Assembly (NCBI GenBank): GCA_030614005.1
Contig: JAUWKS010000027.1
Coordinates: forward strand, 11,140-43,139
Length of the DNA stretch: 32,000 nucleotides
From: Candidatus Heimdallarchaeota archaeon
Lineage (GTDB): Archaea > Asgardarchaeota > Heimdallarchaeia > JABLTI01
Direction: 5' to 3'
Shown here in pieces: positions 1,293 through 2,153 of the stretch. The number at the start of each line of letters is the position of its first letter. The stretch's first letter is position 1. A program made the position numbers and the translations under genes. The notes under the pieces were generated by a model. It was not told the DNA's origin. It worked only from the letters and a program-made list of their open reading frames with translations, and did not search any database.

Positions 1293-2153
1293 TTGGCGAT
1301 AGAAAACGTTTGGATAATAGATAGTTCAAGTGGAATCTGTATCTTTGATTGGTATGCTCGACCAAGAGAAAAAAACATTGACGAACAACTTGTTTCTGGA
1401 TTACTGATTGCATTTAAGAATTTTTCAAGTGAAGCTGGGCTTGTAGATATATCTGCAATTGAAGGTATTGACAAAAAGCTCGCTTATCAAACAGATGATC
1501 AATTCATCATTGCAGGTGTTTGCCACACCAAAGATTATGAATCATTAGTAGATAAAACTTTCTTGGATTTATTGAAACAATTCAGAAGGAAATATAAGGA
1601 TTTGTTAGATAGTGGTTTGACAACTGATGTATCACCATTTAGAACATTCGATGAAGATGTTGTAAAAACACTGACAGATACCTCCTCTTCGAGAAATATT
1701 ATTACTATGACAACAGGAATAATTGTTTCTTTACTCGTTGCAGGTTTAACATTTTTTGGTTATTTCGTAGCTATTGGACCACTACAAGGAGTTGTGGATC
1801 ATGGTGTAGCAAATATTATTGGTTTAATTCTTCTTCTAATTGGAATGATGCTCGCTGGGTTTGCAGGTGGTTTAGTTGCTGGTGATAGAAAGCTTGGTAT
1901 ATTTGCTGGTGTACTATCAACTTTACCAATACTTGGTTTAATGATTGGATTCTTCAATACTTCTTGGGGTGATGTTGGAGGAATAACATCAATAGTATTC
2001 TATTCATTACTCTATTTCCTACTCTTTGGCGCAATGGCAAGTCTTGGTGGCATGCTTGGTGGTTATATCAAGGAAAGCAGATTCTTCTTTCCTGCTGAAG
2101 AATCAGATGAAGACGATGATGAAGAGAACGAAGATGATGAAGAATATGAATAA
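1293..2153 (+). CDS. Longin-domain protein fused to a 4-TM Gly-rich domain with an acidic tail
   Basis: TTG start. Residues ~1-125 show the longin pattern (IENVWII..SGICIF, DEQLVSGLLIAFKNF, FIIAGVC, F..LL..FRRKY, F..FDE). Four hydrophobic segments at ~140-262, then a D/E tail. Confidence 0.75.
   Translation: MAIENVWIIDSSSGICIFDWYARPREKNIDEQLVSGLLIAFKNFSSEAGLVDISAIEGIDKKLAYQTDDQFIIAGVCHTKDYESLVDKTFLDLLKQFRRKYKDLLDSGLTTDVSPFRTFDEDVVKTLTDTSSSRNIITMTTGIIVSLLVAGLTFFGYFVAIGPLQGVVDHGVANIIGLILLLIGMMLAGFAGGLVAGDRKLGIFAGVLSTLPILGLMIGFFNTSWGDVGGITSIVFYSLLYFLLFGAMASLGGMLGGYIKESRFFFPAEESDEDDDEENEDDEEYE

Follow-up and report, generated by a model that had tools for sequence, protein, structure and literature searches.

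What does a longin domain do when it is built, after only a few residues, onto a bundle of transmembrane (TM) helices? The question is raised by a gene near the start of a 32,000-nt stretch of DNA from Candidatus Heimdallarchaeota archaeon (assembly GCA_030614005.1, contig JAUWKS010000027.1, positions 11,140-43,139 of the forward strand); the whole of this stretch, which is archaeal, has a G+C content of 31-36% and carries aIF5A at 215-640, is referred to below as the window. The gene, which we term longin-4TM, encodes a longin head followed by four predicted TM helices, a layout that recurs in many Asgard lineages and for which we found no description. The answer favoured here, with a rough probability of 0.45, is that the protein is a membrane-fixed longin platform.

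On sequence grounds, the gene is real and under strong constraint. Its start was placed at the TTG at 1293 because an in-frame stop lies upstream (1275-1277), neither ATG nor GTG occurs between the two, and the next Met is only residue 139; a GGT is located 11 nt 5' of this start. Three alignments are used below: A1, with 46 orthologs; A2, with 62 family heads; and A3, with the TM module of the wider family. In A1, the homologs start at the same position or a few codons upstream, and 48 positions are invariant. A collection of 5.8 billion proteins contains 60 that are 46-100% identical to the longin-4TM protein over >90% of its length, which excludes a chance open reading frame (ORF); these are 266-317 aa long, a few fragments excepted, and are labelled as Heimdallarchaeota, Gerdarchaeota, 'Asgard group' and, once, Thorarchaeota. 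The DNA of the locus occurs in cold-seep and marine-sediment metagenomes, and no RNA dataset with the locus was found among the sequence holders listed.

The original prediction, made from the letters of the DNA and a list of ORFs, was that the N-terminal domain is a longin. This was borne out by the fold model and by structural comparison with VIA-align and Foldseek, the A2 profile pointing in the same direction: residues 1-130 fold as a longin domain, rather than a roadblock, PAS or GAF domain. In the AlphaFold2 model of the head built from A2, the strands (E) and helices (H) are E5-10, E16-21, H31-48, E55-57, E61-67, E71-78, H83-100, H102-106 and H114-128; in the full-length AlphaFold2 model built from the family alignment, the head has strands 5-10 and 16-21, helix 31-44, strands 49-52, 61-68 and 71-78, and helices 83-100, 102-106 and 114-127. 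Both models have the longin order beta-beta-alpha-beta-beta-beta-alpha-alpha, with no helix ahead of strand 1. When the head was compared by VIA-align with 48,161 solved chains, 34 of the first 35 entries were longins, the exception being MglB at rank 29 (Z 10.6). The top longin entries align over 107-129 residues spanning approximately 1-130 (Z 9.9-14.1, rmsd, the root-mean-square deviation, 2.1-3.5), and include Fuzzy (Z 14.1), Trs23 (13.7), TRAPPC (13.5), Sec22b and VAMP7 (13.3 each) and SRX (12.9), with Mon1/Ccz1, the adaptins and a Lokiarchaeal longin (8yqg, Z 10.9) lower down. The alignments of roadblock proteins (MglB, LAMTOR and Asgard roadblocks) to the head stop at about residue 100 (Z 8.5-10.6). 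Foldseek searches of the PDB and of the Swiss-Prot models agree with the longin assignment. No longin subclass is to be preferred for the head because the top Z-scores are tied.

The sequence matches point the same way. Against PDB sequences, the A2 profile matched the VAMP7 longin (E 4e-4) and Bet5/TRAPPC1 (1e-3), then Mon1, Sec22b, AP sigma, AP mu and SRX, and MglB had an E value of 0.6. Below the Pfam thresholds, the 62 heads matched Longin (12 heads), Fuz_longin_1 (11), Sybindin (7) and Intu_longin_1 (6), and Robl_LC7 is absent among the 25 most frequently matched Pfam families. All of the matches of family heads to curated longin families fall below the curated cut-offs, and their direction is consistent. 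The longin-4TM protein itself has no Pfam match at E <= 1, scans with Pfam and NCBIfam gave nothing useful (the sole match, feoB at 13.6 bits, is meaningless), and the full-length family profile found nothing significant among PDB sequences. A roadblock/LC7 identity of the head was considered and rejected: roadblocks have a helix ahead of their first two strands and lack the two C-terminal helices, whereas the chain here starts with a strand at residue 5, the roadblock alignments end at around residue 100 and Robl_LC7 is missing from the listed Pfam matches of the heads. Thus, the profile and structure search that had been proposed as a check returned longins over the whole domain and not the roadblock, PAS or GAF fold that would have spoken against one.

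Conservation within the head is uneven. It is highest in a stretch comprising alpha1, the following loop and beta3-beta4 (see the table below), and within this stretch the wider family (A2), too, keeps G36, A40, F44 and E47 nearly unchanged. No invariant or near-invariant Arg exists in residues 1-130, either in the 46 orthologs of A1 or in the 62 family heads of A2; the sole invariant Arg residues of the orthologs are R134, at the border of TM1, and R199, in the loop between TM2 and TM3.

The rest of the protein is a membrane module. In the full-length model, the pLDDT (the AlphaFold2 confidence score) is 78 overall and 86-96 in the TM region. The original prediction had the longin domain followed by four Gly-rich TM helices and an acidic tail, and this stands; the linker, which it put at about 15 residues, measures only about 8-10 between the last longin helix and TM1. 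As regards TM topology, whose prediction had also been proposed as a check, the model puts the four helices within residues 136-264. The protein has no signal peptide, and the chain begins directly with strand beta1. Averaged over the 46 orthologs, Lys plus Arg residues number 1.9 ahead of TM1, 2.0 in the TM2-3 loop and 2.7 beyond TM4, against 0.13 in the TM1-2 loop and 0.35 in the TM3-4 loop, and the wider longin-4TM family has the same distribution; the positive-inside rule therefore places the head, the acidic tail and the TM2-3 loop in the cytoplasm. From the charge pattern and the model, both termini are predicted to be cytoplasmic, with a glycine-rich four-helix bundle holding the head close to the inner membrane face, only a few residues away. 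Within A1, G184, G189, G193, G197, G252, G253, G256 and G257 are invariant or nearly so, and there are no conserved charged or polar residues inside the TM helices; G193 and G197 are nearly invariant family-wide (A3). The tails are acidic in close orthologs and variable in other members.

Several features of the TM module are common to all subfamilies, from Heimdall to Hel, Loki and Baldr (A3): R134 before TM1, a G-Y-I-A-G-x-R-K-x-G loop and G-G-x(4)-R-x-x-L-Y-P after TM4. The TM module is thus homologous throughout the family, and a single, ancient event joined the longin to the four TM helices. In language-model searches, the TM part on its own yielded no usable match, and the complete protein retrieved only two unnamed Asgard clusters.

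The family appears to be restricted to Asgard archaea. An exhaustive HMMER pass over 1.84 billion representative proteins yielded 96 relatives, including about 40 with the head and four TM helices at 25-30% identity and about 45 soluble proteins of about 200 aa with the head only. The named longin-4TM members come from Heimdall-, Gerd-, Hel-, Loki-, Promethe-, Baldr- and 'Asgardarchaeia' metagenome-assembled genomes (MAGs), and there is no credible non-Asgard member among these 1.84 billion proteins. A second homolog search with a broad alignment found only close orthologs again, and searches of AlphaFold clusters and the ESM Atlas found only archaeal look-alikes and eukaryotic longins. The family profile is matched in 298 of the 300 genomes sampled across the phylum, with full-length proteins in at least nine coded families among the matches listed. 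A survey of this kind had been suggested in order to learn whether the architecture is widespread in other prokaryotes; the layout was found in many Asgard lineages and no such spread was seen, the survey covering relatives of this family rather than unrelated bacterial longin-like membrane proteins. One member labelled 'Zixibacteria' was rejected as bacterial evidence, since the genes on its contig (Robl_LC7, LAMTOR5-like, SMCR8_C and Rag-like) are of kinds typical of Asgard archaea. That contig (L024, GCA_035528535.1), with its Rag-like GTPase and longin-4TM genes, resembles an Asgard contig misbinned into a bacterial MAG.

The longin/roadblock superfamily of Asgard archaea has been described as comprising 130 clusters of orthologous genes (asCOGs), with 41 longins predicted in one Lokiarchaeon (Liu et al. 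2021, preprint 10.1101/2020.10.19.343400; Tran et al. 2024, PMC10933270). The longin-4TM protein belongs to that expansion, with about 36 such paralogs in its genome. In the available text of these two reports, the Asgard longins are soluble or are fused to GTPase, roadblock, TRAPPC3, DENN, NPRL2-C or two-component domains, and a 4-TM fusion is not mentioned. The available literature on membrane-anchored Asgard longins likewise contained no description of the longin-4TM layout, which may nevertheless have an asCOG entry in the supplement of Liu et al. The expansion of longins in Asgard archaea and many of their fusions have therefore been published already, and what appears to be new is the longin-4TM family, for which we found no description and no informative annotation.

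What, then, might such a protein do? We propose that it is a membrane-fixed docking or regulatory platform. The near-invariant alpha1/beta3 face of the head would bind, and so keep at the membrane, either a small GTPase of the Ras/Arf/Rag type or the roadblock/longin module of such a GTPase. The alpha1-beta3 face is the dimer and GTPase face in MglB-MglA (6h5b, 6izw), Mon1-Ccz1-Ypt7 (5ldd) and TRAPP-Ypt1, and we infer that the window copy uses this face for a GTPase or roadblock partner. The glycine-zipper helices would probably pack tightly and may drive oligomerisation. Docking, scaffolding and an action like that of a guanine nucleotide exchange factor (GEF) or of MglB are all possible for the head.

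The best structural matches of the head (Z 11.7-14.1) are to parts of known platforms, namely the TRAPP core (Bet5/Trs23), Mon1-Ccz1, Fuzzy-Inturned, NPRL2-NPRL3 and FLCN-FNIP. In eukaryotes, these GEFs and GTPase-activating proteins (GAPs) are heterodimers of paralogous longins, and the genome here has two sister longin-4TM paralogs. However, those proteins are soluble or peripheral, and the longin-4TM protein has no conserved arginine finger or assignable catalytic residues. A wider scheme, which we consider unlikely as a whole, is that a dedicated class of Asgard integral-membrane longin receptors holds Rag/Arf/Ras GTPases at the membrane with no lipid anchor involved and that, in Heimdall-type lineages, the two sister paralogs form a heterodimer like Mon1-Ccz1 or TRAPPC1-C4; such receptors would be a counterpart of Ragulator, of SR-alpha/beta or of Sec22-type proteins and possibly ancestral to eukaryotic membrane longins.

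The link to GTPases comes from gene neighbourhoods. The genome encodes two longin-4TM proteins, the window gene product and a sister paralog of 362 aa with a Q/P-rich tail (C110:60765-61853). In a maximum-likelihood tree, the clade of the sister paralog (support 100/99) is sister (92/91) to the clade of the window gene (100/100). The sister clade is always head-to-head with the gene for a GTPase of 427-432 aa: in the genome studied here, in three genomes of the genus (L028-L030) and in one other Asgard contig (P0157; L024). In the present genome, the divergent gene for a 427-aa GTPase (C110:59244-60527) lies 238 bp away, and the pair spans C110:59244-61853 (L048:2245-4854). In the 427-aa protein, an intact G domain that matches Pfam Gtr1_RagA and Arf is accompanied by a proline-rich linker and by a C-terminal domain, also conserved, of about 160 residues; the protein also matches Pfam SRPRB (27 bits). 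The sister paralog and the 427-aa protein are thus a matched candidate pair of membrane receptor and GTPase.

This pair recalls Ragulator (LAMTOR1-5) and the Rags, where membrane-held roadblock/longin folds dock a GTPase made of a G domain and a C-terminal dimerisation domain; in the neighbour of the sister paralog, likewise, a G domain of the Gtr1/RagA type is combined with a conserved domain at the C-terminus. The difference is that Ragulator uses the lipidated anchor of LAMTOR1 and roadblock folds, whereas longin-4TM uses TM helices, and the likeness is one of gene neighbourhood, in the sister paralog only. When the head of the sister paralog was co-folded with the 427-aa GTPase, the median score was 0.12 (runs of 0.10, 0.44 and 0.12, without controls), which speaks neither for nor against binding.

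Elsewhere in the family, a Helarchaeota member is divergently adjacent to a gene for a Ras-type GTPase, and a GTPase gene lies 2-3 kb away from an 'Asgardarchaeia' member and at P0072, L033 and L044, which adds three or four lineages. For comparison, among ORFs of >=150 aa in the present genome, 10% have a GTPase gene within 4 kb and 2.5% have one within 500 bp. A GTPase gene within 4 kb in 5 of about 11 family lineages corresponds to a binomial p of ~0.003, and the two immediately adjacent cases to a p of ~0.03, figures that depend on lineages delimited by eye on one tree and on a background taken from one genome. The enrichment is suggestive, not proof.

Apart from this dependence, a number of observations weigh against a GTPase platform. 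The genome encodes roughly 45 small GTPases, but there is no GTPase gene within 6 kb of the window gene, the GTPase at 30026-30535 being 28 kb off, and the conserved neighbourhood of the orthologs in eight genomes contains none. Nor is there one within 4 kb at the eight f14 loci and several others, or beside the Baldr member or P0077. Ortholog-type genes occur in genomes that are 91% and 93% complete and in which 13-25 Ras/Arf GTPases are encoded but not the one of 427 aa; because these near-complete genomes lack it, this GTPase is no obligate partner of the window-type longin. Longin domains also serve roles that are unrelated to GTPases. Finally, the arginine finger of the NPRL2, FLCN and SMCR8 GAPs has no counterpart in the longin-4TM head, and since there is no conserved Arg in the head, a GAP of the NPRL2/FLCN type is unlikely.

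The neighbourhood of the window gene itself is of a different kind. Orthologs, 46-84% identical, are present in eight species-level genomes, in the order aIF5A (+), a 135-aa protein (-), longin-4TM (+), a membrane protein of about 850 aa (-), a 141-aa protein (-), a 91-aa protein (+), a 342-aa protein (+) and an M20 peptidase (+), and this block is kept at every orthologous locus that is long enough to show it. The conservation of the block says little about function because unrelated housekeeping genes on alternating strands are included. The holding of this eight-gene order and orientation (window 1-8400 and L013-L020), though the longins are only 46-58% identical, is unusually stable for unrelated archaeal genes. 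The 135-aa neighbour has no Pfam or NCBIfam match; it may be a small regulator of the AbrB/MazE plus ACT type, as suggested by a language-model lead (0.77-0.81) to ACT and MazE+ACT clusters and by inspection of the sequence by eye. In the 852-aa protein, the first ~150 residues are extremely acidic and a run of eight lysines occurs just before the first of several TM helices, while the C-terminal ~500 aa belong to no family (a weak DUF4293 match, E 5e-4). A family-wide linkage to this protein was considered and rejected, as the large neighbours (859 aa and 975 aa) of distant relatives are unrelated to it.

Other explanations must be set against a docking platform. In one, the four-helix module is the working part, a small channel, a transporter or a membrane-stress protein of the DUF5518 or DUF3792 type, and the head has a regulatory or sensing role without any GTPase. 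The glycine zippers are typical of channel-forming helices, and the module is conserved as strongly as the head, which is beyond the need of a passive anchor. The likeness to DUF5518 (PF17647) and DUF3792/YrzE (PF12670) consists of four Gly-rich TM helices and a short basic cytoplasmic loop; 14 of the 46 orthologs have sub-threshold Pfam matches to the former and 11 to the latter, and NCBI names some members 'YrzE family' or 'MFS transporter'. When the TM region was aligned by hhalign with a true DUF5518 protein of the same genome, the motifs of the G-rich helix and the basic loop lined up with an E value of 9e-4, but with a probability of only 23%. However, those families lack a longin head, the similarity is below every curated threshold, and the two models, run genome-wide, did not match the window gene at E <= 1, the protein itself having no Pfam match. 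Moreover, the lack of conserved charged or polar residues in the TM helices argues against a channel or transporter, the GTPase neighbours of the sister clade are left unexplained, and, as neither DUF5518 nor DUF3792 has an assigned function, the explanation predicts little. We consider it unlikely, without dismissing it. The second explanation, that longin-4TM works with its 852-aa neighbour as a cytoplasmic adaptor or assembly factor and that the 135-aa neighbour might regulate expression, is quite doubtful. It is favoured by the presence of the two genes on either side of longin-4TM in every orthologous locus examined, down to 46% longin identity, and by the acidic, probably disordered cytoplasmic segments of both membrane proteins (the tail of longin-4TM and the N-terminus of the 852-aa protein). 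Yet the whole eight-gene block, including aIF5A and the M20 peptidase, is syntenic, so that the linkage may reflect slow rearrangement; the alternating strands of the three genes do not allow for a single operon, and distant family members have no related large neighbours.

Two further explanations liken the protein to a particular eukaryotic longin. The original prediction had suggested a Sec22c-like architecture, and part of this holds: like SEC22A and SEC22C, longin-4TM has an N-terminal longin, several TM helices, a cytoplasmic head and no SNARE motif, and SEC22a is among the few non-Asgard matches to the full-length fold. The part that is not supported is a specific relationship: the linker is far shorter, the head resembles the Sec22 longin no more than it does those of TRAPP, Fuzzy/Mon1, SRX or adaptin, and no sequence relationship between the membrane parts was detected in the searches made, none of which was aimed at it. 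That the protein is a true homolog of the Sec22-type membrane longins (Sec22a/c, or the R-SNARE longins), and hence an ancestral trafficking longin, is very improbable. In its favour, SEC22a appears twice among 30 AlphaFold-cluster matches, aligned over model residues 3-268 and 3-275; the VAMP7 longin is the best profile match in PDB sequences; Longin (PF13774) is the most frequent sub-threshold Pfam match of the heads; and the highest Foldseek TM-scores (0.68-0.70) are those of Sec22b. The SEC22a alignments, however, have rmsd values of 17-23 A and E values of ~1e-4, no better than head-only matches, and the VIA-align scores, being tied, do not set Sec22b and VAMP7 apart from Fuzzy, TRAPP and SRX. 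The best match of any family member to PF13774 (E 5e-4) is below the cut-off, the window protein has none, and the ~8-10 residues between the head and TM1 leave no room for a SNARE motif. In addition, Sec22a and Sec22c have been described as homologs of Sec22b that, unlike it, are not SNAREs (PMC2779197, PMC10641524), which would imply a secondary origin of their layout within eukaryotes. Membership of the Sec22a/c family is thus not supported, and the likeness is probably convergent. SEC22A is a membrane protein of the endoplasmic reticulum that associates with RAB18 in a GEF-dependent manner (PMC10641524), so the logic, a membrane longin meeting a GTPase, is perhaps alike.

Equally improbable is an SRX-like receptor, that is, a membrane-fixed counterpart of the head of the alpha subunit of the signal recognition particle (SRP) receptor, SR-alpha, docking an SR-beta/Arf-like GTPase or a targeting factor. 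Among the top matches, SRX has the lowest rmsd and the highest identity (2go5, Z 12.9, 2.3 A, 18%; 6frk, Z 12.9, 2.1 A, 16%), Dictyostelium SR-alpha has the best Foldseek TM-score in the Swiss-Prot models (0.71), and the GTPase next to the sister paralog matches Pfam SRPRB. However, the SRX Z-scores are tied with those of many other longins, only 1 of the 62 family heads has a sub-threshold match to SRX or SRP-alpha_N, and no neighbourhood examined has a link to SRP, FtsY or Sec genes.

If longin-4TM is a docking platform, it would bear on a wider question. Small GTPases and longin/roadblock proteins number in the dozens in Asgard genomes, and the pairing of regulators with GTPases and their recruitment to the membrane are largely unknown; internal compartments have not been observed in Asgard cells (PMC10933270). 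The longin-4TM family provides a concrete, clonable candidate for the step at which a GTPase is anchored to the membrane, and the sister copy offers a matched candidate GTPase in the same genome. By descent or by convergence, the design of SEC22A/C, a longin plus several TM helices, exists outside eukaryotes. For annotation, the names carried by the 60 close homologs ('hypothetical', 'YrzE family' and 'MFS transporter') are uninformative or misleading.

Features of the longin-4TM gene and its two neighbours, with coordinates in the window
Feature	Coordinates	Strand	Basis and remarks
longin-4TM gene, whole	1293..2153	+	ORF list and translation; 286 aa, TTG start, stop 2151-2153
Cytoplasmic longin domain, residues 1-130	1293..1682	+	AlphaFold2 domain model (pLDDT 86, pTM, the predicted TM-score, 0.83); VIA-align; profile matches
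Most conserved head stretch, residues 29-65 (alpha1, following loop, beta3-beta4)	1377..1487	+	27/37 positions invariant in 46 orthologs (A1)
Predicted TM helix 1, residues 136-167	1698..1793	+	AlphaFold2 pLDDT >90, hydropathy, A1; invariant R134 ahead
Predicted TM helix 2, residues 170-196	1800..1880	+	AlphaFold2, A1; glycine-zipper-like spacing G189/G193/G197
TM2-TM3 cytoplasmic loop, centre D198-R199	1881..1886	+	Family-wide motif G-x-[IV]-A-G-x-R-K-x-G, in this protein AGDRKLG (residues 195-201), which extends into the ends of the helices
Predicted TM helix 3, residues 199-229	1887..1979	+	AlphaFold2, A1; invariant W225 at the outer end
Predicted TM helix 4, residues 231-264	1983..2084	+	AlphaFold2, A1, A3; GG-x-x-GG, then the family-wide cytoplasmic motif GG-x(4)-R-x-x-[LF]-[YF]-P
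Disordered acidic C-terminal tail, residues 265-286, cytoplasmic	2085..2150	+	pLDDT <50; 15/22 residues D/E
Divergent 135-aa protein	690..1097	-	Adjoins the longin-4TM gene in 8/8 orthologous loci; 195-bp spacer
Convergent 852-aa membrane protein	2219..4777	-	Adjoins the longin-4TM gene in 7/7 orthologous loci reaching it

The remaining relatives in the genome show how varied the setting of this head can be. In the assembly of 3.6 Mb, the family-head profile matches at 36 places, the architectures given here being based on our own ORF calls. Besides the two longin-4TM proteins, there are several stand-alone heads, and in about eight soluble proteins of ~700 aa the head is at the C-terminus. 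Three proteins have an N-terminal multi-TM region and a C-terminal head (C81:35803-36939, C118:6734-7837 and C72:5490-6653), and six giant proteins (900-1847 aa) have the receptor-like layout of an N-terminal hydrophobic segment, one TM helix and the head about 100 residues beyond it. The premise that Asgard longins are soluble or joined to GTPase or roadblock modules, from which the interest of the locus was first argued, is therefore too narrow for this organism, since many of these paralogs are linked to the membrane in other ways. Example loci of the paralog expansion are C64:606-3308, C10:11647-14487, C87:491-4132, C73:45041-48214, C68:20086-25614 and C103:6784-12327.

Outside this genome, the same longin head occurs in a metagenomic protein of 425 aa (P0123) fused to a prenyltransferase alpha-alpha toroid (Pfam Prenyltrans, E 5e-30), a fusion that attracts attention in view of the problem of how GTPases get to membranes in Asgard cells. 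In a Promethearchaeota protein of 312 aa (P0112), the head is followed by a C-terminal region with sub-threshold winged-helix (TrmB-like) matches.

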